Positions 5,119 to 36,867 of a stretch of 37,972 bases of DNA are shown here, piece by piece. The stretch is from a virus: positions 1 through 37,972 of IMG/VR virus record IMGVR_UViG_3300045988_102451, one strand, 5' to 3'. The notes under the pieces are model-generated. The model was not told the DNA's origin, did no database searches, and saw only the letters and a program-made list of their open reading frames with translations. A program made the position numbers and the translations under genes. The first letter of the stretch is position 1. The number at the start of each line of letters is the position of its first letter.

Positions 5119-5577
5119 GTGGCTAAAATCAATGAGTGGCTTGAAAAAGATAAATTAATATTGCTAGAGGGTTGGGCTAGAGATGGTTTGACAGATGAAC
5201 AAATAGCCAAAAATATAGGAATAAGTAGAGCATCTTTGTATGAATGGAAGAAAAAAGAAGTTGACATATTTGACGCCTTAAAAAAAGGAAAAGAAGTTAT
5301 TGATTTTGAAGTAGAAAATGCTTTGTTAAAAAGAGCATTAGGGTATGAATATGAAGAAGAAACATATGAAAATGGTATTTTAACTAAAAAAGTAAAAAAA
5401 CAAGTTGCACCAGACACGACAGCACAAATATTTTGGCTTAAAAATAGAAAACCAAGCAATTGGAAAGACAGAGTTGAAACAGATGAAGATAAAGAAGCTG
5501 TAGCAAATGCAAGCCAAGTTATTGCTAAAATTAGGAAGGTAGCACAGGAATATACAGATGGAACAAATAGAAATTAG
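5119..5577 (+). CDS. terS: Terminase small subunit
   Basis: GTG start after a 'gaggtgg' RBS. N-terminal HTH 'LTDEQIAKNIGISRASLYEWKKK', 'IFWLKNRKPSNWKDR' motif, position immediately upstream of TerL. Confidence 0.75.
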   Translation: MAKINEWLEKDKLILLEGWARDGLTDEQIAKNIGISRASLYEWKKKEVDIFDALKKGKEVIDFEVENALLKRALGYEYEEETYENGILTKKVKKQVAPDTTAQIFWLKNRKPSNWKDRVETDEDKEAVANASQVIAKIRKVAQEYTDGTNRN

Positions 5578-6856
5578 TGAAAAACAAGCAATTTACATAA
5601 ATGAAGCAACTCATCGTTGGAATGGTAAAGTTGGAGCAACACAATGTGGAAAGACTTATGTTGATACTTTATATGTAATTCCTAATCGTATTGAAGAAAG
5701 AAAAGGGAAAAAAGGGCTTAACTTTATTGTCGGTGTTTCAAAAGAAACGATAACAAGAAATATTATAGAACCTTTACAAGAACTTTTCGGAAACAAAGTT
5801 GTTACTGATATTGCTAGTAATAATACTTGTCGAATATTTGGCGAAAAGGTTTATTGCATAGGTGCTGACAACGTAGGAAGAGTTAGAAAATTCAGAGGTG
5901 CGAGAATTAAATATTTATACATCGATGAAGTGTATGACATTAACGAAGAAGTATTTGAGCTTTTAAAATCTCGTTTGTCTTTTGAATATAGTGTTTGTGA
6001 TTACGCAGGAAATCCTCAACACGAAGAACATTGGTTTGAAATATTTTTAAAAAGTGATGCAGATATTTACTTGCAAAGATACACTTTGTTTGACAACCCA
6101 TTTTTGCCAAAAGTATATGTTGATAATTTGTGTAAAGAATATGAAGGCACGATATATTATGACCGATATATATTAGGTAGAGCTTGCAATGCACAAGGAT
6201 TATGCTATAAAAAGTTTGCAAATAATCCTGAACGATATGGAATGGACTATCAAGGCGAATACAAATTTGTAAATGGCAAACAAAAATGGGTTGATAATTT
6301 ACCACTTGGTGAAACTATTATAGGCATTGACTATGGTGGAACTAAATCAGGGCAGGCGTTTGTTTGTACTAGAATTGCTTATGATTATACCAAAGTAGTA
6401 ACAATGGCAAGTATAAGAATAACTGATGAATTAGATAGTAAGCAATTATTGGAAAGGCAAGTGGAGTTTATAGAATATTGTAGAAATAAATTCCACTGCA
6501 ACATTGACTATGTTTATCCTGACAATGAAGAAAGTGTACATATACGAAGCTTAGACAATGCTGTTCGTGAGCGAGGTTGGAATACAATTGTTAGAGGTAG
6601 CCGAAAATACCCTGTAAATGACCGAATAGAAGCTCAGAACAAGATGTTAGCATTTGACATATGGAAATATCTTAACGGTGAATGCGATAGTCTTGTTAAA
6701 GCTATGAAAACTGCTATGTGGGATGATAACAAGTTAGAAGATACTAGACTTGATGATTTTACTACTGATATAGATGATTTGGATGCTTACGAGTATTCAT
6801 ACGAAAGAGATATGAAAAGAATAATGGATGCAATTAATTATGAGGAGGTTATGTGA
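5558..6856 (+). CDS. terL: Terminase large subunit (PBSX/Terminase_3-like)
   Basis: Walker A-like 'GATQCGKTY', Walker B-like 'YLYIDEV', 432 aa, overlaps TerS and abuts the portal gene. Confidence 0.85.
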   Translation: MEQIEISEKQAIYINEATHRWNGKVGATQCGKTYVDTLYVIPNRIEERKGKKGLNFIVGVSKETITRNIIEPLQELFGNKVVTDIASNNTCRIFGEKVYCIGADNVGRVRKFRGARIKYLYIDEVYDINEEVFELLKSRLSFEYSVCDYAGNPQHEEHWFEIFLKSDADIYLQRYTLFDNPFLPKVYVDNLCKEYEGTIYYDRYILGRACNAQGLCYKKFANNPERYGMDYQGEYKFVNGKQKWVDNLPLGETIIGIDYGGTKSGQAFVCTRIAYDYTKVVTMASIRITDELDSKQLLERQVEFIEYCRNKFHCNIDYVYPDNEESVHIRSLDNAVRERGWNTIVRGSRKYPVNDRIEAQNKMLAFDIWKYLNGECDSLVKAMKTAMWDDNKLEDTRLDDFTTDIDDLDAYEYSYERDMKRIMDAINYEEVM

Positions 6857-8283
6857 TGTTAAAAACTTTATTCAATTGGATTTTAAAAACATTGTTTGGT
6901 GTTAAAACTGAAACAAATAACACCGAAATGACAATGAACGACAAATTTGCTCAAGAATACCGAGCAATTGATGAAATTAATTTTACGAGTATATTTGCTA
7001 ACAAACTAGCAAACTTTGCTGTAAGTGATAGTACAGTTAATATAGTGGGCAACAACAAAAGAACAGAAATGCTTACTGATACATTAAACCTAGCAATGGC
7101 TAGAGGCAAAAAAATAGTAGGTATGCAACTCGGCTATGGTGGGGTTTGCATTGTTCCGTATATTGATAATGGAAAGCTATTATATACACTTGTAGAACAA
7201 GACAGACTTACAATAGACCGAATAAGCGGTGAAAAGATAACTGGGGCTACATTGTTAGCAGAGCAAAAGACAATTACAAGTGGCTCTATAAGTGATACAT
7301 ATTTTAGATGGGTAAACTATACAATAGAAAACGATGTAATTATAATGAGGCAAAAATATACAGACCAGCAAGGAAGTGAAATTGATGTTAATTTAATTCC
7401 TGAATGGGCTAGTATTAATCCAGAAGAAAGAATAATGAATGTTGATAGAGTTCTATTTGGTTATATTAAATCACCAATAAACAACAGAATTGGCAATGAC
7501 AAATACGGTGTTCCTATTACATTTGGTTGTGACCGTACTATTACTGAGATAAAAGAATGTTTAAAACAAATAGCCCGTGAATTTGTATTAAAAGAAGCAT
7601 TTGTAGGCATTGATGAGAGAATGTTTGGTAAAGATAGCCAAGGACGTTCTAAATTGCCTAGAAATGGCTTATTTAAGACATTTAAAAGTGATAGTGATAC
7701 CGATTTCTTTCATGACTATAGTCCAGCAATCCGTGAAAGTTCTTATTATGCTAGGTTGCAAGAACTTTATACAAGACTTGAAAAAGAAATTGGTGTTAGT
7801 AAAGGATTCTTAACTGACATGGATAGCTCAAACGCAACAGCTACTGAAATTCGCCGAGCAATGTACGACACATTTACTTTAGTTAATGATATTCGTAAGA
7901 ATTTTGAAAAAGGAATGGAAGACTTTATCTATGCTTGTAATGTATTAGCAAATAGGTATAATTTAAGCCCGCTTGGTGATTATGAACTTGCATTTAACTG
8001 GGATTATTCATTATTGACTGATACACAAGAGGAATTCAATCATTACATTCAAGGCGTTAGCCAAGGGGTAATAAGTAAAGCCGAGCTACGCAACTGGATT
8101 ATACCTAACGAAACACTAGAAGAAAGCAAAAGGGCTATTGAGGAGATAGAAGAAGAAACACCTAGTGTTGATAAGTTGCTTAATGATGAAGAAGATGATG
8201 CTGATAATGACAAAGATAAGCAAAAAGATAAAGAAGATAACAAAGATGATAAGAAAAACAAAGAAAATGAAGAGAAAGAGTAA
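6856..8283 (+). CDS. Portal protein (SPP1 gp6-like) with an acidic/lysine-rich C-terminal tail
   Basis: About 475 aa directly after TerL. ATG at 6856 lies 7 nt after GGAGG (the track start at 6853 is GTG). Low-complexity tail 'DDADNDKDKQKDKEDNKDDKKNKENEEKE'. Confidence 0.85.
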   Translation: MLKTLFNWILKTLFGVKTETNNTEMTMNDKFAQEYRAIDEINFTSIFANKLANFAVSDSTVNIVGNNKRTEMLTDTLNLAMARGKKIVGMQLGYGGVCIVPYIDNGKLLYTLVEQDRLTIDRISGEKITGATLLAEQKTITSGSISDTYFRWVNYTIENDVIIMRQKYTDQQGSEIDVNLIPEWASINPEERIMNVDRVLFGYIKSPINNRIGNDKYGVPITFGCDRTITEIKECLKQIAREFVLKEAFVGIDERMFGKDSQGRSKLPRNGLFKTFKSDSDTDFFHDYSPAIRESSYYARLQELYTRLEKEIGVSKGFLTDMDSSNATATEIRRAMYDTFTLVNDIRKNFEKGMEDFIYACNVLANRYNLSPLGDYELAFNWDYSLLTDTQEEFNHYIQGVSQGVISKAELRNWIIPNETLEESKRAIEEIEEETPSVDKLLNDEEDDADNDKDKQKDKEDNKDDKKNKENEEKE

Positions 8284-10859: not shown

Positions 10860-10958
10860 ATGATTGATTTTTTGAAATGGATAGGAACAATAATCTTAGG
10901 ATGTATTGTTTTTGTAATATTTATTATGCGAGGTAAGAATTATGCAGAAGAAAAATGA
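10860..10958 (+). CDS. Small membrane protein (32 aa, not in the ORF track)
   Basis: MIDFLKWIGTIILGCIVFVIFIMRGKNYAEEK. GGAG lies 7 nt upstream of the ATG. Overlaps the start of the MTase gene. Confidence 0.4.
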   Translation: MIDFLKWIGTIILGCIVFVIFIMRGKNYAEEK

Positions 10959-11841
10959 GATAGATAATATTTTTGAGGAAAAGACCTATAAAATTAATAA
11001 TATTTTTTGTGAAGATTGCGTAGAGGGCATGAAAAAAATTAAATCAAATAGTGTAGATTTAGTTGTTACATCACCGCCATATGATGGTATTCGCAATTAT
11101 AATGGATTTTCCCTTGACCTTCATGAAACAGGGAAAGAGATATATCGTATTCTAAAAGAAGGTGGAATCTGCGCTGTTGTTATCCAGGACCAAACAAAGG
11201 ATTTCGGTAAATCGCTAACATCGTTTAGAATTATAGTTGATTGGTGTGATAATATAGGTTTTAAATTATTTGAAAATATTATTTATCATAAAAATGGTAC
11301 AGAAGGAGCATGGTGGAAATATAGATTTAGAGTTGACCATGAATATATTCCTCTATTTTTGAAGGGTAAAAAGCCATCATATTTTAATAAAGAACCATTA
11401 AAAATTCCTTCAAAGCATGGTGGCAAAACCATGACAGGAAGCGGGAATAGAAGGACTGACGGAAAAACAACTGCAACTGTTACTAGACAAATAAATGCAA
11501 TGAAATGTAGAGGAACTGTTTGGGATTATATGATGGCAGGAGATAAAAATCCATTAAAAAGAAAACACCCTGCCGTATTCCCAGACCAAATTCCGTTAGA
11601 CTTAATAACATGTTTTTGCCCTAAAAATGGAATAGTTTTAGACCCATTTATGGGTTGTGGTTCAACGGCGGTTGCCTCAGTCAGATTAAATAGAAATTTT
11701 ATTGGATTTGATATATCTCAAGAGTATTGTGATTTAGCATATGAGAGATTAAAAAAAGATACATTATTTTATAATGTAAATAATAAGGAGATGATAAATA
11801 ATGAAATTAGAAGTTGGAATGTATGTAAGGATGGAAAATGA
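10942..11841 (+). CDS. Beta-class DNA methyltransferase, SPPY type (probably N4-cytosine), orphan
   Basis: Motif IV 'VVTSPPYDG', 'HPAVFPDQIP', motif I 'DPFMGCGSTA'. Visibly GC-richer than the surrounding island. Confidence 0.9.
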   Translation: MQKKNEIDNIFEEKTYKINNIFCEDCVEGMKKIKSNSVDLVVTSPPYDGIRNYNGFSLDLHETGKEIYRILKEGGICAVVIQDQTKDFGKSLTSFRIIVDWCDNIGFKLFENIIYHKNGTEGAWWKYRFRVDHEYIPLFLKGKKPSYFNKEPLKIPSKHGGKTMTGSGNRRTDGKTTATVTRQINAMKCRGTVWDYMMAGDKNPLKRKHPAVFPDQIPLDLITCFCPKNGIVLDPFMGCGSTAVASVRLNRNFIGFDISQEYCDLAYERLKKDTLFYNVNNKEMINNEIRSWNVCKDGK

Positions 11842-12879: not shown

Positions 12880-14544
12880 ATGATTAATGAAGAACTACAA
12901 GAAAAGTTGTTAAGTGTGTTTGACAAAAGATTTCAAGATTACAACACAAAAGTATTAGAAGAATTAGGAAATGTTATCAAGCAATTTAAAGACTTAACAC
13001 CAAGCCAAGCATACAAGTTAGGTCAGCAGCTAAAATACAATACAACTATCAAGGATTTATTAGATGAGTTATCTAAAATAAGTGGCTTGTCTGTTAAAGA
13101 CTTAAAAGCAATACTAGAAAAGGTTGCAAAAGAGAACATTGGCTTTGCTGATGTGTATTATAAAAGTCGTGGACTTGATACACCTATTTATAGTGAGAAT
13201 AAAGCACTTCAGAGACTTGTTTCTAGTGTTTATAGTATAAGTGGTGCAGAATTCAAAAACATTGCTAAAAGCACAGGTTTTAGACTTTTAGGAGATAATG
13301 GGAAACCTTTATTACTAGACATTGATGAAACATACAAATATGTAATAGATAAATGTGTTGTTGCTATTAGTCAAGGGAAGGAAACATATCAGCAAAGTAT
13401 GAGAAATACTTTAAAGCAATTATCTTCAAGTGGAGTTCGTAAAATAGAATATGAGAGTGGATATTCAAGAAGATTAGACACTTCTATAAGGATGAATATA
13501 CTTGATAGTATGAGGCAAGTATCAAATGAAAGCCAACAACTATTTGGCAAAGAATTTGATAGTGATGGTGTAGAAATATCAGTGCATTTAAATCCAGCAC
13601 CAGACCACGAATTGGTACAAGGGAGACAATTTAGTAATGAAGAATTTGAGAACTTCCAAAATGATAGAAAAGCAATTGATTATACTGGTATGGTATTTGA
13701 ACCTGAATTTGAGGGATATGATAGACGTTCTATAAGTGAATATAATTGCTATCATTACATATTTAGCATAGTTTTAGGTGTATCTAAACCACAATATAGT
13801 GATAAGCAATTAAAAGAAATAATTGATAATGCTAACAAAAAAATAGAATTTGATGGCAAAGAATATACTCAATATGAACTAACACAACTTCAACGAAGAA
13901 TTGAAAGTGCTATTCGCGAAGCAAAAGATACACAAATATTAGCAAAAGCAAGTGGTGATGAAGAACAAGTATTAAAAAGCCAATTAAGAATTACACAATT
14001 AAATACTAAGTATAAACAGTTATCTCAAATTAGTGGATTACCTACTAAAAAACAAAGATTATCTGTTGGTGGATATAAAAAGATTAGTACAAAAAGTGTT
14101 GAAGAAAAAGTTAAAAAGGTGTATAATACAGGTGATTTATATAGAGATACAACTCTTTATATAAAAGCAAAAAAATGGCAAGAAAAGATAAAAGATGGTG
14201 AAATTAATCTTAACATAAGAGAAGGCAAACAAGTTCGTCATTTTATAAACAATAAAGAATATATAAAAAACAAAAGTTATTTTAATGAAAAATATTCTAA
14301 TATAGATAAAATTAAAGAATTAGTTGATAGATATGCTGGAACAGGTTGGATACCTGATACCAAAGAAAATAGATTAAATAAAAGTAAAGAAAGAATAACG
14401 ACAAATGAAAAAATAGGTATATATATAGGAATAGATGATAAAGGAAAAATTATCTTGAAACAAGAAACAAATTCATTTATAATACACTACTCAAAAAAAG
14501 GAGTACATATTGTACCATCACCAAATAAGGAGGATAAAAAGTGA
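12880..14544 (+). CDS. Head morphogenesis / minor capsid protein (SPP1 gp7 / Mu F-like) with a C-terminal extension
   Basis: 554 aa. 'HLNPAPDHELVQGRQFS' resembles the gp7/Mu-F core motif. The extra ~147-aa C-terminal domain ends 'FIIHYSKKGVHIVPSP'. Confidence 0.8.
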   Translation: MINEELQEKLLSVFDKRFQDYNTKVLEELGNVIKQFKDLTPSQAYKLGQQLKYNTTIKDLLDELSKISGLSVKDLKAILEKVAKENIGFADVYYKSRGLDTPIYSENKALQRLVSSVYSISGAEFKNIAKSTGFRLLGDNGKPLLLDIDETYKYVIDKCVVAISQGKETYQQSMRNTLKQLSSSGVRKIEYESGYSRRLDTSIRMNILDSMRQVSNESQQLFGKEFDSDGVEISVHLNPAPDHELVQGRQFSNEEFENFQNDRKAIDYTGMVFEPEFEGYDRRSISEYNCYHYIFSIVLGVSKPQYSDKQLKEIIDNANKKIEFDGKEYTQYELTQLQRRIESAIREAKDTQILAKASGDEEQVLKSQLRITQLNTKYKQLSQISGLPTKKQRLSVGGYKKISTKSVEEKVKKVYNTGDLYRDTTLYIKAKKWQEKIKDGEINLNIREGKQVRHFINNKEYIKNKSYFNEKYSNIDKIKELVDRYAGTGWIPDTKENRLNKSKERITTNEKIGIYIGIDDKGKIILKQETNSFIIHYSKKGVHIVPSPNKEDKK

Positions 14545-25337: not shown

Positions 25338-25678
25338 TAAAAGTGTCAATAAGTTTATTAAGTGTAATGATAGCGAATGTATTATTAGGAGTAACATTAG
25401 CAAAATTAAAACAAAAATTTAAAAAAGAAAAACTGTTAAATGGTTTGGTCAAGTATTTGGGAATATTTTTAGGAATATCACTTGTGTATCTAGCAGGTTA
25501 TTTAAATCCAAATATTATAGTCGCAAATATAAATAATGTGGAAGTTAATTTAATGACTGGCATAGAAGTTTTATTTATATCAGGTATAGTTTATTATGGT
25601 ATACAAGATTTAATTAAATTGAAGAACTTGTTAGGATTATCAAATGATATTACTCCCACCGATGAAGGAAGAGGGTAG
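25334..25678 (+). CDS. Holin (holin_4_1 / TcdE-like pattern)
   Basis: 114 aa, three TM segments, 'LLGVTLAKLKQKFKKEKLLNGLVKYLGIFLGISLVY', immediately upstream of the lysin gene. Confidence 0.7.
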   Translation: MIKVSISLLSVMIANVLLGVTLAKLKQKFKKEKLLNGLVKYLGIFLGISLVYLAGYLNPNIIVANINNVEVNLMTGIEVLFISGIVYYGIQDLIKLKNLLGLSNDITPTDEGRG

Positions 25679-25679
25679 T

Positions 25680-26507
25680 ATGAATAAGTATAATGCAGAA
25701 AGATTATTTCATACCCTTGATGATATATTCATATCTAGTCCTTACTCAAATAGGATAAGCCCAATAACAGGTGATAGGGAATTTCATGAAGGTGTAGATT
25801 ATTCAGCAAACGGAAAATCAATACCGATATATGCGTTGGACGATGGAGAAGTATTATATGAGGGATACGACAATTCAACAGGTGCAATAATATGTTATAT
25901 AAGATTTCCTAAATTAGATAATCATGTGGGGCTTTATTATCATTTAGCAAATACTGTAATTAATAAAGGCGATAAAGTAACAAAGGATACTAAAATAGGA
26001 ATGATGGGAAGTACAGGATATTCAACAGGAAATCATTTACATTTTGATTGGTTCAAATATAGTGATTATAATAAAGGTTTTTATGATAGAGAATATGAAG
26101 ATTTTAACGAGTATATATTCCCTGAAAACAGAATAAAAGTAACTGCTCCAGTAGAAAGAAATGAAAATATCAATCAGATAAGAGTAATAGTCGATAATTT
26201 ACGAGTTAGAACATCTAGTAGTATAAATAGTAGTGTAATCGGTTTCGTTCAAAATAAGGGCATTTATAACGATTTAGAGGTATGCAAAGAAAATAACTAT
26301 ACTTGGCATAGAATTGCTGACAATCAGTGGATAGCAGATAATGAAGAATGGTTAGAAATATTGCCAATCACAGATTATAAAAAATTATACGAAAAAAGTT
26401 TAAAAGAAATAGAACAATTGAAAAACATTAATAATAATTTATCAAGCAATATGTTAAAATTAAAAGATAAATTAAAACAAATACATGAGTTATCAAAAGG
26501 AGAGTGA
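25680..26507 (+). CDS. M23 peptidase with a C-terminal SH3-like wall-binding domain (endolysin or virion-associated lysin)
   Basis: 'HEGVDY' (HxxxD) and 'GSTGYSTGNHLHFD' (HxH). C-terminal 'LRVRTSSSINSSVIGFV...YTWHRI' is SH3-like. ATG at 25680 follows 'gaagaggg'. Confidence 0.85.
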   Translation: MNKYNAERLFHTLDDIFISSPYSNRISPITGDREFHEGVDYSANGKSIPIYALDDGEVLYEGYDNSTGAIICYIRFPKLDNHVGLYYHLANTVINKGDKVTKDTKIGMMGSTGYSTGNHLHFDWFKYSDYNKGFYDREYEDFNEYIFPENRIKVTAPVERNENINQIRVIVDNLRVRTSSSINSSVIGFVQNKGIYNDLEVCKENNYTWHRIADNQWIADNEEWLEILPITDYKKLYEKSLKEIEQLKNINNNLSSNMLKLKDKLKQIHELSKGE

Positions 26508-26511
26508 TTGT

Positions 26512-27135
26512 ATGGCAAATATTAAAATAAGTGAATTAGATGAATTACAAAAAGCAACTGACCAAGATTTGCTTGTTATTGTTGATGTTGCTAATAATGA
26601 AACAAAAAAGATACAAGCGGGAAATCTTGGAACTGGTGGAGCAGAAATTCCAATTGGTTCAACCCCACCAGAAAATCCAGAAGAAGGCGATTTTTGGATA
26701 GATACAAGTGCAAATGGTGAAACATATGGCGATACATTGCCGATAGGTGCTATGGTTGAATACAATGGTACAACAGTTCCACAAGGCTATGAGAAAGTTA
26801 GTGATAATAATATATTAGATAGTTCTGATATTGTAAATAATTTAACTAGTGATGACGCAACTAAAATATTAAGTGCAGCAATGGGAAAAGAATTAAGAAA
26901 TTTGATTAATCTTGATAGATTAGTCAATGTTGACTTATCCACAATTAAATATCATTGCTTATGTGGTGTAGATAATAATTGTACAGGTTGGATTGGAGGT
27001 TATGGCGTGTTAATATGTATTCCATTATCTCGAAGTTCAAACTATGCAATTCAAATTGGTTTTAATGATGTAACTGTAAAATGGAGAAGTAGTCTAAACA
27101 ATGGTACTTATAGTGATTGGAAAACATTTAGTTAA
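26512..27135 (+). CDS. Tail fibre / receptor-binding-like protein
   Basis: The N-terminus 'MANIKISELDELQKATDQDLLVIVD...TKKIQAGNL' is a common fibre anchor motif. ATG at 26512 follows 'aaaggagag'. Confidence 0.6.
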   Translation: MANIKISELDELQKATDQDLLVIVDVANNETKKIQAGNLGTGGAEIPIGSTPPENPEEGDFWIDTSANGETYGDTLPIGAMVEYNGTTVPQGYEKVSDNNILDSSDIVNNLTSDDATKILSAAMGKELRNLINLDRLVNVDLSTIKYHCLCGVDNNCTGWIGGYGVLICIPLSRSSNYAIQIGFNDVTVKWRSSLNNGTYSDWKTFS

Positions 27136-27149
27136 AGGAGGTATAAAAT

Positions 27150-27599
27150 ATGATAATAAGAAAAACGCAACAACCTAGTGATTTCCCTACTAATAATATA
27201 AGTAATGCTAAAACAACTGGAACTACTAATACTTATTCATGTGATTATATAAATGGAATTGTTGAAAGTGGTTCAAATGATAACGGAAATTGGATTAAAT
27301 ATAGTGACGGTACTATGATAACATATCAAAATGTGAATATTACTTTATCTGTTACTGAAGCGTGGGGTGGAATATTTGTAGGAAACTATACAACGCCAAT
27401 TAATTTTTCTCAAACTTTTAAAGAGCCACCAGAAGTGTTAATTGATTTAAAGTTTACTCAAGGTGCTGGTTGGCGAGTTGACTGGGATTTTCCTGTTATA
27501 ACTAATTCCAGTATTAAAAATATTGGGGTTGGAAGAGGGACTGCTTCTGATACGTCAAAATTTAAAGCCACAATTTTTGCAATAGGAAAATGGAAATAA
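27150..27599 (+). CDS. Fibre/RBP-like protein, paralogue group
   Basis: Carries the motif 'NTYSCDYINGIV' shared with 27612..28109. Strong 'aaggagg' RBS. Confidence 0.55.
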   Translation: MIIRKTQQPSDFPTNNISNAKTTGTTNTYSCDYINGIVESGSNDNGNWIKYSDGTMITYQNVNITLSVTEAWGGIFVGNYTTPINFSQTFKEPPEVLIDLKFTQGAGWRVDWDFPVITNSSIKNIGVGRGTASDTSKFKATIFAIGKWK

Positions 27600-27611
27600 A
27601 GGAGGAACAAC

Positions 27612-28109
27612 ATGGCAACGTTTAAATATTATGATGGAACAAAATACAATAGAATAACTGGTGGCTTAGTACCTAAAACTACAAATACTACAAGCGATAC
27701 GGAAACTTATAGTTGTAATTATGTAAATGCACAAGTTGATGATTTAAATACTACAATTATAGGAGTAGATAGTATTGTGGCTAAAAAACCTGATGCTATC
27801 AATACTTACACAACAAGCACAACTGACGCTTATACGTGCGAGTATATAAATGCTAATACAATTCCAGTGATAAACTTCAGTGGTGATTTTAACAATTATA
27901 AAGAAACCGCTATAGGTCAATGTCAAATGTCTGCTAATAAGCCACTAACAGATGCAAATTATTTTTATGGAACAATAATAGTGATAAAGTTTGGAAGCGC
28001 TTATTGTAGTCAACTTACAACTGATATTAACACCGGAAAAATGTATAATAGAGTATTAATAAATGGCAGTTGGACAGCATGGAAAGAGATTCAGCAAAAC
28101 GATATATAA
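27612..28109 (+). CDS. Fibre/RBP-like protein, paralogue group
   Basis: Two copies of the motif: 'ETYSCNYVNAQV' and 'DAYTCEYINANT'. RBS 'aaggagga'. Confidence 0.55.
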   Translation: MATFKYYDGTKYNRITGGLVPKTTNTTSDTETYSCNYVNAQVDDLNTTIIGVDSIVAKKPDAINTYTTSTTDAYTCEYINANTIPVINFSGDFNNYKETAIGQCQMSANKPLTDANYFYGTIIVIKFGSAYCSQLTTDINTGKMYNRVLINGSWTAWKEIQQNDI

Positions 28110-28210: not shown

Positions 28211-28489
28211 ATGGAGTTAACAATAGCTTTAGCATTGTCGATACTTGGTTCTGTAATATCAGTATGCAGTTTTGTACTGAATAGAAAAGATAAAAGTAAT
28301 AAAGATATAAAAGAAGAACAAAAGCAATTTGACAAGAACAATTTAATAGAATATAGACTTACTAAAATAGAACAGAATATCGAAAAGATATTAAACAAGT
28401 TGGATGTGTATGAAAAAGAAATTGATGATAGAATAAAAATTGCAATTGATAGTCATATTGCTATTTATCACAATAAAAAGGGAGAATAA
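28211..28489 (+). CDS. Small membrane protein: N-terminal TM plus coiled coil (BhlA/XhlA-like architecture, possible holin accessory)
   Basis: 'LTIALALSILGSVISVCSFVL' TM segment followed by a charged helical region. Confidence 0.5.
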   Translation: MELTIALALSILGSVISVCSFVLNRKDKSNKDIKEEQKQFDKNNLIEYRLTKIEQNIEKILNKLDVYEKEIDDRIKIAIDSHIAIYHNKKGE

Positions 28490-28490
28490 A

Positions 28491-28778
28491 ATGGGAATAC
28501 GTGAGGAAGTGTTAGAAATGAAGAAAGAAGTAGAAGAAATACAAGAGCATTCATTCGCAATGGAACTTTTAAAAGACCAAAAGAAACAGAACAAAAGACA
28601 ATTTATCATAATATTAGTGATATTAGGAATGTTTACTTGCTTATTAGGTTATACTATATATTTGCTTAACGATTTTGGTGTAAGCACCGAAACAGACACT
28701 ATTGATATAGATAATGTAGAAGCAATTGACAATTCACATATTAAAATTGGTGATGATGTATGGGAAAAATCAAATTAA
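28491..28778 (+). CDS. Small membrane protein with a central TM segment
   Basis: ATG at 28491 after an 'agggaga' RBS. TM segment 'FIIILVILGMFTCLLGYTIYLL'. Confidence 0.5.
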   Translation: MGIREEVLEMKKEVEEIQEHSFAMELLKDQKKQNKRQFIIILVILGMFTCLLGYTIYLLNDFGVSTETDTIDIDNVEAIDNSHIKIGDDVWEKSN

Positions 28779-28879
28779 CTAGAACTCGTACAACAAAATA
28801 TCGTAAATCTAAGACTACTAAAGATAGCAAAGGTCGAAGAAGATGTAAGACTTGTGGTAAATTTATGGGAAATAAGTAA
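28760..28879 (+). CDS. Very basic 39-aa peptide (not in the ORF track)
   Basis: MGKIKLTRTRTTKYRKSKTTKDSKGRRRCKTCGKFMGNK. Its stop overlaps the next start (taATG). Weak RBS. Confidence 0.35.
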   Translation: MGKIKLTRTRTTKYRKSKTTKDSKGRRRCKTCGKFMGNK

Positions 28880-29079
28880 TGCTTAAGTTAGATTTAACTA
28901 GAAAAGAATATGATGAATTGAGTAACAAATTAATATTAAATGAATTCCAAAAGCGAATATTTAAATACAGAATAAAAGAATATAGTATTACAAAAATGGC
29001 TATGCTAGAAAATTGTAGTGAAAGCACAATTAATAGAGAGATTAAAAAGATTAAGAATAAAATAAAGAAGATAATTTGA
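28879..29079 (+). CDS. Small sigma-70 region-4-like HTH regulator
   Basis: 'LTRKEYDELS...FKYRIKEYSITKMAMLENCSESTINREIKKIKNKI' fits a region-4/LuxR-type HTH pattern. Confidence 0.55.
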   Translation: MLKLDLTRKEYDELSNKLILNEFQKRIFKYRIKEYSITKMAMLENCSESTINREIKKIKNKIKKII

Positions 29080-29094
29080 TTTATCTTCTTTTTT
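29065..29094 (+). terminator. Intrinsic terminator
   Basis: 10-bp stem aagaagataa (29065-29074) / ttatcttctt (29081-29090), followed by TTTT. Confidence 0.7.
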
Positions 29095-29122
29095 GACATT
29101 AATTAGACATAAACTGGATAAT
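29093..29122 (+). promoter_or_regulatory. Promoter of the ORFan cassette
   Basis: TTGACA (29093-29098), 18-nt spacer, GATAAT (29117-29122). Confidence 0.55.
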
Positions 29123-29267
29123 TTCCAATTCTTTTTTTATTATATACTTTTATTGTAAACGAGAGTTAATCTTGATTTGCGAGAAAGGAGAGATACAATT
29201 AAAAATATTCTTAAAACGAATATGGTTTGTTGTTTTCTCCTTTTTATGTTAGAAAGGAATAATTAAA

Positions 29268-29456
29268 ATGAAAGAAAAAATTGAACAAAAATTAGAAGAA
29301 AGAATTGAAATGATATTAAATAAAAACGTTGAAGATATTACAAATGAAGAATTTGATGAATTAAAAAATAAATTAAATATAATTGATTTTGAAGAAAATC
29401 AAGAAGAAACACAAAAAGATATGATTGAATTAATGACCAAATTATTTAAAAAATAG
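29268..29456 (+). CDS. Small highly acidic protein (62 aa)
   Basis: ORF with an 'aaagga' RBS and an E/D-rich helical sequence. Confidence 0.55.
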   Translation: MKEKIEQKLEERIEMILNKNVEDITNEEFDELKNKLNIIDFEENQEETQKDMIELMTKLFKK

Positions 29457-29469
29457 GAGGTGAATGAAT

Positions 29470-29919
29470 ATGTATAATCAATATAACCCTTATTTAAACC
29501 GTTTTTATGGGCAACAACAAGCGAATATGCCTCAACCAATGGATTTGCCTATGCAACAACAAAACACGCCACAAATGGCTTTAAATAGGCAAAATATACT
29601 ATATGGAAAGCAAGTTGATAGTTTAGAAGTAGTAAAAGCAATAGATATTCCTTTAGACGGAAGCATAAGTTACTTCCCACTTGCTAATGGTAGTGCCATT
29701 GTTACTAAACAACTACAACAAGATGGAACAAGTAAAATAACTATTTATGAACCTAAAACGCAAAAAGAAGATATGAAATTTGCAACTATTGAAGATATAG
29801 ATAAAAGACTTGAAAAAATAGATTTTAGTGAAATTGATGATTTAAAAGACGATTTAGAAGATTTAAAAAAAGAGTTAAAAGATATTAAAAACAAATTAAA
29901 AACTAAAAAGGAGGATTAA
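29470..29919 (+). CDS. Protein with a Q/N/P/M-rich N-terminus, a beta-rich core and an acidic coiled-coil tail
   Basis: The ATG at 29470 lies 9 nt after GGAGG; the track start at 29464 is too close. 'MYNQYNPYLNRFYGQQQANMPQPMDLPMQQQNTPQ'. Confidence 0.6.
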   Translation: MYNQYNPYLNRFYGQQQANMPQPMDLPMQQQNTPQMALNRQNILYGKQVDSLEVVKAIDIPLDGSISYFPLANGSAIVTKQLQQDGTSKITIYEPKTQKEDMKFATIEDIDKRLEKIDFSEIDDLKDDLEDLKKELKDIKNKLKTKKED

Positions 29920-29922
29920 TTT

Positions 29923-30147
29923 ATGAACCCTTTAAATATGATAAAAGGAATGATGGGAATTAGTAATCCTAAAGATATGGCAATGAAAATGCTATCACAA
30001 AATAACAATCCCATATTTAAAAATTTAATTGATATGGCAAACAAAGGCGACACAAAAGGTGTTGAAAATTTTGCTAGAAATTATATGAAAAGTCAAGGAA
30101 AAAATTTCGACCAAGAATTTAATAATTTCAAAAGTATGTTTAAATAA
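29923..30147 (+). CDS. Hypothetical Met/Asn/Lys-rich protein (74 aa)
   Basis: ORF with an 'aaggagga' RBS. Confidence 0.55.
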   Translation: MNPLNMIKGMMGISNPKDMAMKMLSQNNNPIFKNLIDMANKGDTKGVENFARNYMKSQGKNFDQEFNNFKSMFK

Positions 30148-30214
30148 AATATTTGGTTTTTAATATAATTTTGCAATCCCCAAGTATTTTAAATATAAAG
30201 AAAGGAGAAAAAAT

Positions 30215-30979
30215 ATGCGTGGAGAAAGTGGATTAACTGCTTCTGATGTTGCTCTATTATCTGGAAGAAACGGAAATAATGATGGTTTTGGAGATAATGG
30301 TAGCTGGTGGGTTATTATCTTTTTAATCTTTGCCTTTATGGGTTGGGGTAGAAACGGTAATGGCTTCGGTGGTGGTAATGGTTCAGGTGCTACTGATAAT
30401 TACGTACTTGCTTCTGACTTTGCTACAATTCAAAGGCAATTAAGCGATGGTTTCAATGATTTAACAGCACAATCAAGATATATTCAAAATGGAATATGTG
30501 ATGGTTTCTATGCTATGAACACAAGTCTATTAAATGGATTTGCTGGTGTTAATAATTCAATTATGACAAATGGTTATGAAACTAGAAATGCTATTAATAA
30601 CTTATCAAGTGATTTAGCAAGTTGTTGTTGTAATTTAAGAAGCGATATTCAAGGAGTTAACTACAATCTAGCAACTAATACTTGTGCTTTACAAAACACA
30701 ATGAATATGAATACTAGAGATATAGTTGACACTGTCAATGCAAATTATCGTGCATTACATGATGAAATAGTCGCTAATAGAATTGAAGATAAGAATGCTC
30801 AAATTACTGCACAACAAAATGAAATTAACGCATTAAGATTGTCTGCTAGTCAGTCAGCACAAAATGCTTATTTATTAAGCGAATTAAAACCTTGCCCATC
30901 ACCTAGTTACATAGTACCAAACCCTAATTGTTGCTATAATTATCAAGTAACAAGTGGATGCGGATGTGGAAATTTTTAG
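30215..30979 (+). CDS. Gly/Asn-rich single-pass membrane protein with a Cys-rich C-terminal tail
   Basis: TM 'WWVIIFLIFAFMGW' flanked by GNG-type tracts. 10 Cys, 5 of them in the last ~31 aa ('KPCPSPSYIVPNPNCCYNYQVTSGCGCGNF'). RBS 'aaaggaga'. Confidence 0.7.
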   Translation: MRGESGLTASDVALLSGRNGNNDGFGDNGSWWVIIFLIFAFMGWGRNGNGFGGGNGSGATDNYVLASDFATIQRQLSDGFNDLTAQSRYIQNGICDGFYAMNTSLLNGFAGVNNSIMTNGYETRNAINNLSSDLASCCCNLRSDIQGVNYNLATNTCALQNTMNMNTRDIVDTVNANYRALHDEIVANRIEDKNAQITAQQNEINALRLSASQSAQNAYLLSELKPCPSPSYIVPNPNCCYNYQVTSGCGCGNF

Positions 30980-31024
30980 TAAGACCTGATTACAGGAACT
31001 TGATTACAAGTGCTTACTATTTTT

Positions 31025-31052
31025 AGAGATAGGAAAGCCCTATCTCTTTTTT
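31025..31052 (+). terminator. Strong intrinsic terminator in the middle of the cassette
   Basis: 9-bp stem agagatagg (31025-31033) / cctatctct (31039-31047), followed by T6. Confidence 0.8.
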
Positions 31053-31080
31053 AAATAATTTATAAGAAAGGAATGATATT

Positions 31081-31539
31081 ATGATACAAAGTTATCAAGA
31101 AACGCCAGTTTTACTTGCTTCAAATTCTAGCCCTTTAACATTTTCTACGGATTGCATAAGAACAAGATGTGCTAATTGCTATGGTTTTCTTCAACATTCA
31201 CAAGGTTCACCACTTTATAAAATTTTAAATGGTGGAAATTATGACGTTACTTTTAACGCAAATGTAACAAGTGCTACTGCTGGACAAGTTGCTTTAGGTT
31301 TATATATGGATGGAGTTCTATTGCCTGGTACAACTGTTATTGCTGACATAGCAACCGCTGGCGATTATGTAAATGTTGCATTTACTAAAACAGTGCCAAT
31401 TTGTTGCAGAGGTGAAGCCACTTTAACAGTACAATCAGTACCTAGTGTTTTAACTGGTACAACTGTAACCGGAACACCAACTGCTACACAAATACCTTTA
31501 TATCAAAATGCTAACTTTAGAATTAGCAAAAGGTCATAA
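31081..31539 (+). CDS. Beta-rich Thr/Val/Gly/Ala-rich protein with 5 Cys (jelly-roll / C1q-TNF-like guess)
   Basis: 'GGNYDVTFNANVTSATAGQVALGLYMDGVLLPGTTV' and 'CCRGEATLTVQSV'. RBS 'aaagga'. Confidence 0.6.
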   Translation: MIQSYQETPVLLASNSSPLTFSTDCIRTRCANCYGFLQHSQGSPLYKILNGGNYDVTFNANVTSATAGQVALGLYMDGVLLPGTTVIADIATAGDYVNVAFTKTVPICCRGEATLTVQSVPSVLTGTTVTGTPTATQIPLYQNANFRISKRS

Positions 31540-31742
31540 TGAATACTGAAAACAATAATGAGTATTTATTCAATTTAATAAATATATTATCTTTTATTAT
31601 TGGTGTTGAAAACTTAAACTTGAATGACAAACAAATTGAAAAATTAGAAAGCCATTTAAGTAAACAAGACAAGCAATATGAGGAGATAATACGATTATTA
31701 AAGGAAGGAGGTATTTTAGATGGAAGAAGAGAACAAAAGTGA
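31539..31742 (+). CDS. Hypothetical protein (67 aa)
   Basis: taATG coupling to the upstream gene. Confidence 0.5.
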   Translation: MNTENNNEYLFNLINILSFIIGVENLNLNDKQIEKLESHLSKQDKQYEEIIRLLKEGGILDGRREQK

Positions 31743-32256
31743 AGAAACTAAAGAAAATGTTTTAATAAAAACAAAATCTGAAGTTGAAAGAATAATAAAA
31801 CAAATAACTGAAAATGGTTTACAAACTGCAAATGTAGAACTTTTATACAAATTAATAGATATTCATAAAGATATTGAAAATGAAAAATATTGGAAAGAAA
31901 AGGAGGAAAATATGATGTATAGAGGAAGAGATTATTTTATGGACGATAGTTATAATGACGGTCGTTCAAGAGATAGCCGTGGAAGATATATGGATGGTTC
32001 TTATGGAAGAAGAGGTGTCCCTGGAACTGGAAGAGGTCGCTACCGTGGATATGATATGATTGAAGAAATGGGCGAACACTACGGAGATTATTCGGAGGGT
32101 AGAGATAACTACGGAAACGATAGAGAAACCGAAAAATCTTTTGATAAAATGCTACAAAGTCTTGAAGATTTTACTTATTTAATAATGCAAGAAGCCGATA
32201 GCCAAGATAAAATTGAAAAGGTTAGAAAAACTGCACGTAAGATAAGTGAATTTTAA
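31720..32256 (+). CDS. Protein with a central Arg/Gly/Tyr/Asp-rich low-complexity segment
   Basis: 'YRGRDYFMDDSYNDGRSRDSRGRYMDGSYGRRGVPGTGRGRYRGYD'. Strong 'aaggaaggagg' RBS. Confidence 0.6.
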   Translation: MEEENKSEETKENVLIKTKSEVERIIKQITENGLQTANVELLYKLIDIHKDIENEKYWKEKEENMMYRGRDYFMDDSYNDGRSRDSRGRYMDGSYGRRGVPGTGRGRYRGYDMIEEMGEHYGDYSEGRDNYGNDRETEKSFDKMLQSLEDFTYLIMQEADSQDKIEKVRKTARKISEF

Positions 32257-32612
32257 TGTATAAATTTTATAATAACAATGCTTTAGGTTTATTTGAGAAC
32301 GATTGTGCAATAAGGTCAATAAGTCTTGCAACAGGTAATAGTTGGGATGATACATACCAATATTTAAGCAACAAAGCAAGGTTAAAAGGAACTATGCTAG
32401 ATGATAGAGATTTTATACTTGATTTTTTAGATGAACGATATGAAAGAGTACCCACATATAATTTATCGGTCGGAGAAGTATCGGCAAAATACAACGACAA
32501 TGTTATTCTTATAACAATGACTGGGCATATTGTTTGTTCTAAATATGGCGTTGTTTATGATAGTTTCGATTGCCGTAAAAGACAAGCCGAGTATTGTTGG
32601 ATTGTTAAATAA
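32256..32612 (+). CDS. Putative papain-fold Cys-His(-Asp) peptidase (118 aa)
   Basis: 'NDCAIRSIS' (Cys17) and 'TGHIVCSKYGVVYDSFD' (His91, Asp102), with spacing typical of small cysteine peptidases. taATG coupling to the upstream gene. Confidence 0.55.
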   Translation: MYKFYNNNALGLFENDCAIRSISLATGNSWDDTYQYLSNKARLKGTMLDDRDFILDFLDERYERVPTYNLSVGEVSAKYNDNVILITMTGHIVCSKYGVVYDSFDCRKRQAEYCWIVK

Positions 32613-32633
32613 GAAGATTAATTTCTTCTTTAT

Positions 32634-32709
32634 CAGGGTGTACTCAAGTGGTTTAAGAAAACGGACTGCAACTCCGTTATCGTGGGTTCAAATCCCACCA
32701 CCCTGTCCA
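32634..32709 (+). tRNA. tRNA-Cys (anticodon GCA), CCA encoded
   Basis: Acceptor cagggtg/caccctg. Anticodon arm acgga-ctGCAac-tccgt. T arm gtggg-ttcaaat-cccac. Discriminator U followed by CCA. The D stem is weak and the first pair is C1-G72. Confidence 0.75.
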
Positions 32710-36189: not shown

Positions 36190-36867
36190 TTGGGAAAAGG
36201 TTATACCCTTTATGTCCACGTTTGCCCCAATGATAAAAATTATGTTGGAATAACTAAAAATGCTCCAGAAAGAAGATGGGGAAATGGCAAAAATTATAAA
36301 GGTTGCATTTTGTTTAATAGAGCAATAAAAAAATATGGTTGGGATAATATAAAGCATATTATAGTATTAACCAATTTAACTAAAGAGGAAGCAGAAAATA
36401 AAGAACAAAGTTTAGTATCTTTTTTGAAAAGCAATAATCCCAATCATGGTTATAATATTGCAAACGGAGGATATATAAACAGTGTTAGCGATTTAACTAA
36501 AGAAAAACTGAGAAATGCTTCTACTGGTAAAACTCATAAAGTAAGTAATGAAATAAAAGAAATATTGAGAAAGAAAAATTTGGGAGAAAATAATCCCATG
36601 TTTGGAAAAGTTCCATGGAACAAAGGTAAAAAAATGGATAAAAGTTCATGCCAAAAAATGAGTGTTGCAAAAAAAGGGAAAAAATCTCCTAAAAGAAAAA
36701 AAGTGTTATGTGTAGAAGAAAATAAAATATATAATTCAATAGTAGAAGCAGAAACGCTAACAGGAATAAAAAATATAAGTAGATGTTGCTTAGGCAATAC
36801 TAAAAAAGCTGGTGGTTATCACTGGCAATATTATAAAGAAGAAAAGAAAGTTGAGGAAGAAAAATAA
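36190..36867 (+). CDS. GIY-YIG homing endonuclease (I-TevI-like, NUMOD3 repeats), TTG start
   Basis: 'GYTLYVHVCPNDKNYVGIT', 'RRWGNG', 'YNIANGG'; repeats 'NPMFGK' and 'PWNKGKK'; C-terminal 'AGGYHWQY'. Confidence 0.85.
   Translation: MGKGYTLYVHVCPNDKNYVGITKNAPERRWGNGKNYKGCILFNRAIKKYGWDNIKHIIVLTNLTKEEAENKEQSLVSFLKSNNPNHGYNIANGGYINSVSDLTKEKLRNASTGKTHKVSNEIKEILRKKNLGENNPMFGKVPWNKGKKMDKSSCQKMSVAKKGKKSPKRKKVLCVEENKIYNSIVEAETLTGIKNISRCCLGNTKKAGGYHWQYYKEEKKVEEEK

Follow-up and report, generated by a model that had tools for sequence, protein, structure and literature searches.

Downstream of the lysis genes in a viral genome from the IMG/VR database (record IMGVR_UViG_3300045988_102451, positions 1–37,972; this whole stretch of 37,972 nucleotides is called the window here) lies a cassette, at about 29,093–32,709, of eight co-oriented and tightly packed open reading frames (ORFs), g1 to g8, followed by a tRNA-Cys gene. 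We show here that this cassette is a copy of a widely shared, horizontally exchanged set of five to six phage genes, carried by thousands of gut phages of unrelated bacteria. As judged from the comparison of related loci, the core of this set, referred to as the module, consists of g2, g3, g4, g5 and g7 with a loosely linked g8, while g1, g6 and the tRNA are lineage-specific additions. The genes encode, among others, a cysteine-rich protein with a short hydrophobic segment (g4), a protein predicted to have a C1q/TNF-type fold (g5) and a small peptidase-like protein (g8). We tentatively propose that these products build a multi-protein assembly late in infection.

Conservation and limits of the module

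GenBank phages, IMG/VR and GTDB genomes supplied 174 related loci, whose ORFs we searched with iterative hidden Markov models (HMMs). An earlier note on this DNA, written by a model from the letters alone, had described the cassette as nine ORFan genes acting as one unit. The eight packed ORFs and the tRNA-Cys are present as that note described them, and its descriptions of the protein compositions are accurate. The ORFan label, however, has to be given up, as five of the eight proteins (g2, g4, g5, g7 and g8) fall into PHROG families, all of unknown function, and the relatives of g4, g5 and g8 in a large protein collection number more than 7757, more than 5774 and more than 7998, respectively. 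None of these relatives of g4, g5 and g8 carries a name or a Pfam domain, except for a weak BclA_C match on g5 homologues. Among the 174 loci, g4 was detected in 159, g2 in 147, g5 in 118, g8 in 108 and g7 in 105. The order g2-(small gene)-g4-g5-g7 is fixed across lineages whose proteins are less than 30% identical and whose modules occupy different genomic positions, and g8 lies upstream of g2 in most lineages but downstream of g7 in that of the window.

Across phage and prophage databases, conservation as a syntenic unit thus extends to g2-(g3)-g4-g5-g7 and not to g1 or g6, so the nine genes do not form one unit. The acidic 62-aa ORF g1 (29268–29456; this and all other cassette features are on the plus strand) has no homologue in 94 related loci, an identical protein being found only in seven contigs of near-identical phages, and it lies outside the conserved module. 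The 67-aa ORF g6 (31539–31742), with a hydrophobic N-terminal half and a charged helix, has HMM matches in 8–10 loci, all of them close relatives, and g8 is exchanged apart from g2–g7. The tRNA-Cys(GCA) gene (32634–32709; called by ARAGORN, 57.7 bits with Rfam) is the only tRNA gene of the phage. It was rejected as a part of the module, since its position after g8 is conserved in the window's own lineage alone. Cysteine makes up 3.3–3.9% of g4, g5 and g8 versus 1.37% in the rest of the genome, and a tRNA-Cys beside the most cysteine-rich genes is compatible with high expression of g4 in this one lineage.

In Bacteroidota versions, the g4-like gene is followed by genes for a beta-rich, Thr/Val-rich protein with a CC motif, for a g2-like protein with a beta-domain and a C-terminal coil, and for a g7-like protein rich in Arg/Gly/Tyr and Asp/Glu. 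No homology of the Bacteroides-phage proteins downstream of the g4-like gene to the g5 or g8 profiles was found by hhalign, and the resemblance is one of size, order and composition only. In Clostridium perfringens phages and some Oscillospiraceae contigs, g4 is followed instead by a different cysteine-rich beta protein of about 120–134 aa (family C12; in loci L124, L175 at 7689–8048, and others), which has an N-terminal CxxC, a CC motif and no Pfam match. It is possibly an analogue of g5.

As the earlier note had stated, the cassette proteins have no annotated function in PHROGs, Pfam, NCBIfam or PADLOC. Searches of family libraries returned nothing from NCBIfam or PADLOC, and nothing above threshold from Pfam for any cassette protein. 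The best PADLOC v2 defence matches, none of them significant, had E values of 0.0012–0.02 and fell on short low-complexity stretches. Sequence searches of the PDB with the single proteins and with profiles of g2, g4, g5 and g8 gave nothing significant. Full-text literature searches gave no description of the module, and neither it nor its hallmark protein g4 is named in Pfam, PHROGs, NCBIfam, PADLOC or PDB. The module thus appears to be undescribed and to lie outside the known kinds of system, a rating that owes as much to its undeciphered function as to proven strangeness, and two of its parts have familiar folds.

Exchange, genomic position and hosts

Between the window and the related contigs L007–L012, g2–g7 are 90–97% identical, with ratios of nonsynonymous to synonymous substitution rates (dN/dS) of 0.06–0.15 and dS of 0.2–0.4. 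In contrast, the flanks are divergent, with 62–68% identity for two transmembrane (TM) ORFs, 39% for a helix-turn-helix (HTH) gene, 44% for g8, and 36–42% with dS above 1 for early genes. The g8 protein is instead 98% identical to that of contig L097, whose g5 is only 65% identical to g5 of the window. The similarity of g2–g7 against divergent flanks indicates that the block has been exchanged as a unit, with some swapping of single genes, and is under purifying selection. A second comparison is offered by the C. perfringens phages vB_CpeS-17DYC and phiCP13O, whose flanks are 96–98% identical. The former has g2, g3, g4 and a cysteine-rich protein at the position of g5, while the latter has 1.4 kb of other genes there. 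From the identity contrast with the flanks and the absence from phiCP13O, we conclude that the module is mobile and dispensable.

The module is found at several kinds of site, mostly at the close of the late region or within it. It follows the lysis genes in the window's lineage, Butyrivibrio phage Ceridwen, bajarodcaudo virus 5 and Dulem virus 33, and at two prophage ends it directly borders the bacterial genes, with no further phage block between. A site between the genes for a MuF-like protein and the scaffold or major capsid protein (MCP) is seen in about 55 related IMG/VR loci and in Dulem virus 35 and bajarodcaudo virus 2. Of the upstream neighbours with 70 aa or more, 87% run in the same direction as the module. 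The earlier note's placement of the cassette as accessory cargo at the end of the late/lysis region is borne out by the prophage ends and by phiCP13O. Variable presence in close relatives, horizontal exchange, and flanking promoter- and terminator-like sites are likewise found, as in morons and other accessory genes.

In a crAss-like phage (cr52_1, contig L013, 16–2547) and a Methanomassiliicoccales virus (contig L179, 815–3949), the two genes of a diversity-generating retroelement (DGR) were observed, an Mtd-like tail protein and a reverse transcriptase, with a g4-like gene a few genes downstream of the pair. In cr52_1 the g4-like gene (gp23; L013 4545–5468) and its neighbours carry in-frame stops under genetic code 11, consistent with the stop-codon recoding known in some Crassvirales.

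Contigs bearing the module are assigned to Clostridia (Lachnospiraceae, Oscillospiraceae, Ruminococcus), Bacilli-like metagenome-assembled genomes (MAGs), Phascolarctobacterium, Collinsella and Paludibacteraceae. A prophage on a 557-kb Prevotella scaffold carries g2, g4, g5 and g8, and a Butyrivibrio phage carries the module. A g4-like gene alone is found in a Bacteroides uniformis phage, many Crassvirales and two archaeal viruses (Methanomassiliicoccales). Prevotella, Phascolarctobacterium, Collinsella, Butyrivibrio, the hosts of Bacteroides and crAss-like phages, and Methanomassiliicoccales are not known to sporulate. This broad host range rules out a spore-specific role, and hosts that are monoderm, diderm and possibly archaeal argue for a role that does not depend on one type of envelope.

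The hallmark protein g4

The g4 gene (30215–30979; phrog_16490, E = 7e-49) encodes the hallmark protein of the module, and an exhaustive search of cluster representatives gave 1707 clusters at 50% identity with E <= 1e-3. Among the 150 best-scoring clusters, with lengths of 80–333 aa, no fusions were seen. The N-terminus has an amphipathic leader-like motif at residues 7–18, most commonly of the form [LY][ST]xxD[VI]AxxxG[NRG], followed by a Gly/Asn-rich linker. A Trp-flanked hydrophobic core of 13–15 residues (residues 31–45), with Lys or Arg on neither side, is conserved in nearly all homologues. The hydrophobic segment of the single-pass membrane protein noted earlier in the cassette is confined to g4, as g2, g3, g5, g7 and g8 have neither a TM segment nor a signal peptide by hydropathy. 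After the core come a Gly/Trp/Asn-rich stretch and an Asn-rich region with a CCC motif at residues 137–139, which is present in 159 of 160 homologues. These are followed by LxLxASQ and PxPxY motifs and a CxC-rich tail, whose C-terminal CxC is found in 134 of the 160.

The commonest leader fits the double-glycine consensus LSxxELxxIxGG at positions -12, -11, -8, -7, -4 and -2, with Asn or Arg rather than Gly at -1. The other leader classes (VPxxMxV, GYALG) fit this consensus poorly. A g8 gene is present with 34 of 44 g4 proteins of the first class (class a) versus 10 of 22 of the others, a count that ignores kinship. A coiled coil in g4 was considered and dropped, there being no significant periodicity of 3.5 or 3.67 residues. 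Depositors have called crAss and Bacteroides homologues 'spike protein/glycoprotein' or 'outer capsid protein/viral fiber', among other names, which are automatic similarity labels and not tests of function.

The C1q/TNF-type protein g5

The g5 protein (31081–31539) is beta-rich. Its match to the Pfam family BclA_C (PF18573) reaches 21.3 bits, below the gathering cut-off of 38, and 42 of 55 g5 homologues match the same family at E <= 0.01, the best with E = 3.9e-7. An AlphaFold2 (AF2) model with a mean predicted local distance difference test (pLDDT) score of 72 gave Foldseek matches in the PDB with probability 1.0, E values of 1.4e-5 to 1e-4 and query template-modelling scores (TMq) of 0.45–0.57. 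These were BclA, F-BclA, BxpB, ExsFA, TNF ligands and C1q (3twi, 1wck, 9h38, 8d02, 7r5i, 1rj7 and C1q entries). In BFVD, the same fold occurs in stand-alone phage proteins of about 135 aa and at the distal tip of collagen- or YadA-like phage fibres. On this model, g5 is predicted to carry a C1q/TNF-type jelly roll like that of the BclA C-terminal domain (CTD) and BxpB.

At the sequence level the g5 profile found nothing in the PDB. Neither g4 nor g5 has GXY collagen repeats or a match to the Collagen family of Pfam. A CX4CX2C motif in g5 was rejected as an Fe-S or Zn site, as its cysteines are not conserved, only a CC/GC...C pair being semi-conserved.

The peptidase-like protein g8

The g8 protein (32256–32612; phrog_3754, E = 5e-14) has six residues, N6, N8, C17, H91, D102 and W115, that are invariant in 11 diverse and 54 database homologues. 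D16 shares this invariance in the alignment of 11 sequences and comes close to it in the set of 54. In the AF2 model (pLDDT 89.5), C17 starts a helix (17–26), H91 starts a strand (91–96) and D102 ends a strand (99–102). This papain-like arrangement suggests a minimal, peptidase-like protein of clan CA with a C39-like Cys-His-Asp set, in agreement with the small Cys-His peptidase-like protein of the earlier note.

Foldseek gave no significant match for g8, and its list of weak matches is enriched in clan-CA proteins (ComA-C39, Josephin, USP, PLpro, UfSP) with TM-scores of at most 0.45. The best in this list is the ComA PEP domain (3k8u and 5xe9; TMq 0.43–0.45, E = 1.6–1.8). The ComA domain has C17, H96, D112 and a DCG motif, which serves as a lead and not as a test. 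An oxyanion-hole Gln at position -6 relative to the Cys is absent from g8, whose upstream invariant residues are N6 and N8. The modules and their surroundings contain no ABC transporter gene. We rejected the identification of g8 as an endolysin of the CHAP or NlpC/P60 type, as neither Pfam nor Foldseek gave such a match.

The partners g2, g3 and g7

The g2 protein (29464–29919; phrog_21718, E = 7e-10) is always encoded upstream of g4. It has a variable prion-like head rich in Gln/Asn/Pro/Tyr, a conserved domain of about 50 aa and a charged C-terminal helix, and is 90% identical to its L007 counterpart with dN/dS of about 0.12. Apart from coiled-coil noise, neither Pfam, searched also with diverse homologues, nor the PDB gave a match. 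The slot between g2 and g4 is filled in the window by g3 (29923–30147), a helical protein of 74 aa rich in Met/Asn/Gln, whose HMM matches 47 loci. In 79 further loci, the slot holds a 73-aa Met/Gln-rich family (C0) that is like g3 in size, composition and position, with no homology detectable by HMM. The g7 protein (31720–32256; phrog_28802, E = 4.5e-10), encoded downstream of g5, has helical ends around a low-complexity core rich in Arg/Gly/Tyr/Asp and is 94% identical to its L007 counterpart. Its conserved residues are K44, L45, K50, Y78, G88, R89, Y95, R105, G106 and Y108.

Transcription signals

An intrinsic terminator-like hairpin followed by a T-run lies between g4 and g5 (31025–31047; 9 bp with 4 GC pairs, -13.2 kcal/mol, z = -4.4). 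It was missed in the earlier note and is the only terminator called by our consensus scan. The spacer after g4 is unusually long for this operon (median 101 nt), and a hairpin of <= -8 kcal/mol abutting a T-run was found in 18 of 40 independent clusters of spacer sequences, versus 1.1 expected from shuffles. This recurrent terminator suggests that g2–g4 are made in excess over g5–g7. A terminator directly after a gene is a known arrangement behind major structural genes of other phages.

Upstream of the cassette, the earlier note had called a strong terminator (29065–29094) and a TTGACA promoter. The hairpin is there (29064–29091, plus strand; an A/U-rich stem of 11 bp with a short U tail, RNAfold -10.8 kcal/mol, z = -3.37), but the consensus terminator scan did not call it, and it is possibly a weak terminator. 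The promoter match is also real, a sigma-70-like TTGACA-18-GATAAT at 29093–29122 that agrees at 11 of 12 positions, yet such matches are near chance frequency in DNA of 27.8% GC (64 found versus 53 expected). On the plus strand of the window, 12 matches including this one agree at >= 11 of 12 positions, eight of them between 28.1 and 37.5 kb. Perfect 12/12 matches (TTGACA-17-TATAAT) were observed at only two positions of the window, 8300 and 37500, both on the plus strand.

A proposed assembly and competing explanations

We regard it as possible, and hold it tentatively, that the module encodes a peptidase-matured, cysteine-linked assembly of several proteins with an anchor and a C1q-type head, made late in infection. 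In this model, g4 would be the abundant central component, held by its short hydrophobic anchor and stapled through the cysteines of the CCC and C-terminal CxC motifs, and g5 would form a C1q/TNF-type trimer acting as a globular head or binding partner. As two separate polypeptides, they may be the counterpart of the BclA/BxpB 'nap' and of fibres that bear C1q tips in other phages. As a C39-like cysteine peptidase, g8 would mature a component, most likely g4 at its double-glycine-like leader, while g2, g3 and g7 could act as low-complexity assembly or chaperone factors. Given that the products have no signal peptides, assembly would take place inside the cell, either in the cytoplasm or on the inner side of the membrane, with exposure or release at lysis, and the released structure might be adhesive or protective regardless of the host's envelope type. 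We infer all of this: that there is one assembly, that g8 cleaves g4 and g5 caps or binds it, and also the oligomeric states, timing, localisation, action at or after lysis, and role. The contexts of late or structural type (after holin and endolysin, at the MuF-scaffold site, near tail and DGR genes, and 87% co-orientation) are consistent with such an assembly.

Several observations weigh against the assembly. No homologue of the module was found in any virion proteome or structure, and no phage virion protein is among the top 50 PDB matches of g5 by Foldseek, which are BclA, TNF and C1q only. A module that passes among phages whose virion proteins differ widely would hardly be expected to dock specifically on a capsid. 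The conserved hydrophobic segment of g4 and the small TM neighbours point to the membrane and not to the virion, and a g4 'stalk' is unsupported because no significant heptad or hendecad periodicity was found. In C. perfringens phages, the block stands behind an antirepressor among early-looking genes. As for the peptidase, g8 has no profile match to C39 in Pfam, NCBIfam or PDB sequences and resembles it only at the fold level (TM-score 0.45, E > 0.5). The putative cleavage site in g4 has Asn or Arg, not Gly, at -1. About 30% of the loci whose flanks are complete lack g8, and the protein falls to 44% identity in L007 while the g4 leader stays identical.

An extended form of the assembly, which we consider rather unlikely, would make the module a self-contained 'coat or fibre kit' of the gut virome. 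Its proteins, among them a C1q/TNF head and partners of prion-like and RGG/Tyr-rich type, would be cysteine-cross-linkable and protease-matured and would come together inside the infected cell. Once lysis had occurred, the product would cover or tether virions, or build a matrix, and so favour persistence or adhesion in the animal gut. We are just as reserved about its range, which would run from phages of Firmicutes, Bacteroidota and Actinobacteria to crAss-like phages and viruses of methanogens, and about any tie to the exosporium nap, whether by functional convergence or by evolutionary kinship.

The membrane-directed features lead to the main alternative explanation, doubtful but worth weighing, in which the module serves lysis, egress or exclusion. 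Here g4 would be a single-pass effector like the T4 class-III holin T or an i-spanin, and leader removal by g8 together with the soluble partners g2, g3, g5 and g7 would tune the timing of lysis, membrane disruption or superinfection exclusion. The hydrophobic segment kept in nearly all g4 homologues, the usual site directly behind holin and endolysin, and the small TM families C3 and C10 that travel with the module would all be accounted for. The known mosaicism of lysis cassettes, whose function is independent of virion proteins, fits the exchange seen, and a neighbouring gene in crAss-like cr52_1 was labelled LysB/FtsL-like by its depositors. However, g1–g8 match no holin, spanin or lysis family in Pfam or PHROGs, the module proteins have no lipobox, and the carrier phages already encode a canonical holin. 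Proteins with a C1q/TNF fold, a prion-like head or Arg/Gly/Tyr-rich (RGY-rich) repeats are without precedent in lysis control, many modules stand between MuF and scaffold or MCP, and the g4 segment is without the positive-inside flanks that bacterial bitopic proteins usually have. In Firmicutes prophages, conversion genes classically occupy the place at the border to bacterial DNA where the module is found, which raises the quite unlikely prospect of cargo for lysogenic conversion or competition between phages. The module would then be a moron active in the prophage state or at the start of infection and serving defence, anti-defence or fitness, such as a protease-activated membrane effector resembling gasdermin/protease pairs. 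The pairing of a protease with a membrane protein, presence or absence among close relatives, horizontal exchange, and the module's own promoter- and terminator-like signals fit such cargo. Yet PADLOC has no match, the module is always in a phage context and co-oriented with late genes, many copies are embedded in head-gene operons, and six genes of structural-type, low-complexity composition do not resemble the defence or conversion cassettes known so far; moreover, no integrase is found in the window phage or its relatives, and their genes lie on one strand.

The earlier note had proposed that the cassette remodels the surface of the cell or spore, or serves in exclusion, and had likened the compositions to coat/exosporium or envelope-matrix proteins of low-GC Firmicutes. 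The resemblance to exosporium proteins holds in part, as g5 is predicted to share the jelly roll of the BclA CTD, BxpB and ExsFA; the cysteine-rich, RGY-rich and Gln-rich compositions recall coat proteins, and many carriers are Clostridia. The spore role itself is contradicted by the hosts, with the full module in a Prevotella prophage, in Phascolarctobacterium and Collinsella MAGs and in a Butyrivibrio phage, and with g4-like genes in Bacteroides, crAss-like and archaeal viruses. In addition, the C1q/TNF fold is also common at the tips of phage fibres, collagen repeats are absent, and no coat family of Pfam is matched, so that we consider this spore-based explanation largely refuted and its residual probability very small. 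The roles in exclusion and cell-surface remodelling named in the same note may still apply. No more credible than the spore role is the view that unrelated small phage ORFs lie side by side by chance. The lineage-specific g1 and g6, the independent swapping of g8 and g5, and the occurrence of the neighbouring families C7 and C10 without the block would agree with it, but the order g2-(g3)-g4-g5-g7 is kept at less than 30% identity and in different genomic positions, and the block is transferred as a unit with dN/dS of about 0.1. What probability remains belongs to something else.

Comparison with known systems

The closest structural parallel of the proposed assembly is the BclA/BxpB (ExsFA) nap on the exosporium of the Bacillus cereus group, with which g5 is predicted to share the C1q/TNF jelly roll (TMq 0.48–0.57). 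Those proteins likewise lack signal peptides, implying cytoplasmic assembly and exposure by lysis, and cysteine-rich partners occur in both systems. BclA is N-terminally processed before its attachment, and a dedicated peptidase-like protein is encoded in the module. Unlike BclA, however, the module has no GXY repeats, its head and putative anchor are separate polypeptides, and identity is only 11–22%. The hydrophobic anchor and the CCC and CxC motifs of g4 are absent from BclA, and the hosts of the module are mostly or partly non-sporulating and include Bacteroidota. The g5 fold also stands at the C-terminal tip of C1q-tipped collagen- or YadA-like phage fibres, and in several lineages the module lies in or beside blocks of virion genes. 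In contrast to those fibres, g5 is a stand-alone protein of about 150 aa with no recognised baseplate- or capsid-docking domain, and the module is exchanged between dissimilar sets of virion genes.

The g8 protein shares with the C39 domains that mature class II bacteriocins and pheromones with double-glycine leaders (ComA, LagD) the order Cys, His, Asp, a 'DC' at the nucleophile and an alpha+beta domain of about 120 aa. The g4 N-terminus partly fits such leaders, with L(-12), S/T(-11), D(-8), V/I(-7), L/A(-4) and G(-2). The putative substrate g4, however, is an anchored 25-kDa protein and not a small peptide, and no ABC transporter belongs to the module. With the T4 holin T and its partners RI and RIII and with the Rz/Rz1 spanins, g4 has in common a short N-terminus, one TM domain, a large C-terminal domain, conserved cysteines and a Pro/Cys-rich end, and the module shares adjacency to lysis genes and accessory status. 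It differs in having no sequence or profile similarity to them, in the occurrence of g4 in both monoderm and diderm hosts, in its extra C1q-like, peptidase-like and low-complexity genes, and in its frequent site in head operons. Morons and conversion cassettes at the lysin-attR junction of Firmicutes prophages resemble the module in location, presence/absence polymorphism, own signals and exchange. Unlike morons, the module is a conserved unit of five to six genes across phyla that also occurs in apparently virulent phages and in structural operons, and no toxin, exclusion or defence domain was recognised in it.

If the module is one functional system, it would rank with the more widely distributed of those multi-gene units in the gut virome that lack annotation, crossing host phyla and unrelated phages. 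Assigning its role would annotate thousands of 'hypothetical' genes and could reveal a new accessory structure or a new mechanism acting on membranes. Biochemical entry points are offered by g5, a possible binder of glycans or receptors with its C1q/TNF-like fold, and by g8, a minimal C39-like peptidase that may come with a built-in substrate in g4. Should the module prove to be an accessory of lysis or exclusion, it would still be a new family, of more ordinary significance.

Neighbouring genes and other features of the window

Two genes upstream of the cassette, both on the plus strand, recur near the module. The first encodes a small single-TM protein of family C10 (28491–28778; 95–112 aa in the family), matched with E = 8e-24 by an HMM built from neighbours in other lineages. 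C10 often adjoins the module and also has homologues in phiCP13O, and its protein is probably lysis-associated. The second encodes a 66-aa HTH protein of family C7 (28879–29079; C7 HMM E = 1.5e-26) that resembles sigma-70 region 4, with weak matches to HTH_38 and Sigma70_r4_2 in Pfam and to sigma factors in PHROGs. In other lineages, C7 frequently lies beside the module or inside it. The window's copy is the 39%-identical HTH gene of the L007 comparison. An extended module including C10 and C7 was rejected, as both families are present in phiCP13O without the block and neither was transferred together with it. A 92-aa ORF at 28211–28489 showed no significant link to the TM family C3. A candidate ORF of 39 extremely basic residues (MGKIKLTRTRTTKYRKSKTTKDSKGRRRCKTCGKFMGNK; 28760–28879, plus strand) bridges the TM gene and the HTH gene.

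The window has 27.8% GC and essentially every gene on the plus strand, and it looks like a complete or near-complete genome of a tailed phage. Its genes include a DnaB-type helicase (504–1742), a large terminase (5558–6856), an SPP1-type portal (6853–8283) and recognisable tail genes. No integrase was found among its large ORFs or in its relatives. Among GenBank phages, megablast found no close relative and blastn only four short matches, while near-identical relatives are present in many metagenomic contigs of 37–40 kb. The closest MAGs are labelled 'Mollicutes', 'Bacilli' and 'Firmicutes', so the host is probably a low-GC gut member of the Bacillota.

A MuF-like minor capsid protein (12880–14544, plus strand; Phage_min_cap2, E = 5e-58) ends in an Ntox50 polymorphic-toxin domain (E = 2e-17) and is a candidate for a toxin delivered with the virion. 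Two N6/N4 DNA methyltransferases are encoded on the plus strand (2536–3264 and 10942–11841), the second within a 4.5-kb insert of small genes between the end of the portal gene (8283) and the start of the MuF gene (12880). A GIY-YIG domain protein in the replication region (36190–36867, plus strand) is likely a homing endonuclease.

The window has an M23 peptidase gene (25644–26507, plus strand) followed by three fibre-like ORFs (25644–28109 in all), and GH25 is absent from it. In relatives (compare L007, 7125–8298), a 65-aa holin-like gene and a GH25-LysM endolysin gene follow the tail genes. The lysis region thus appears, from gene content, to be mosaic between the window and its close relatives. 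In the relatives L007 and L012 (858–1349 and 1482–1973), an HNH/NUMOD4 homing-endonuclease gene interrupts a tail gene site, and where L009–L011 have one continuous, tape-measure-looking tail gene of 692 aa, the L007/L012 group has products of 165 and 520 aa instead.

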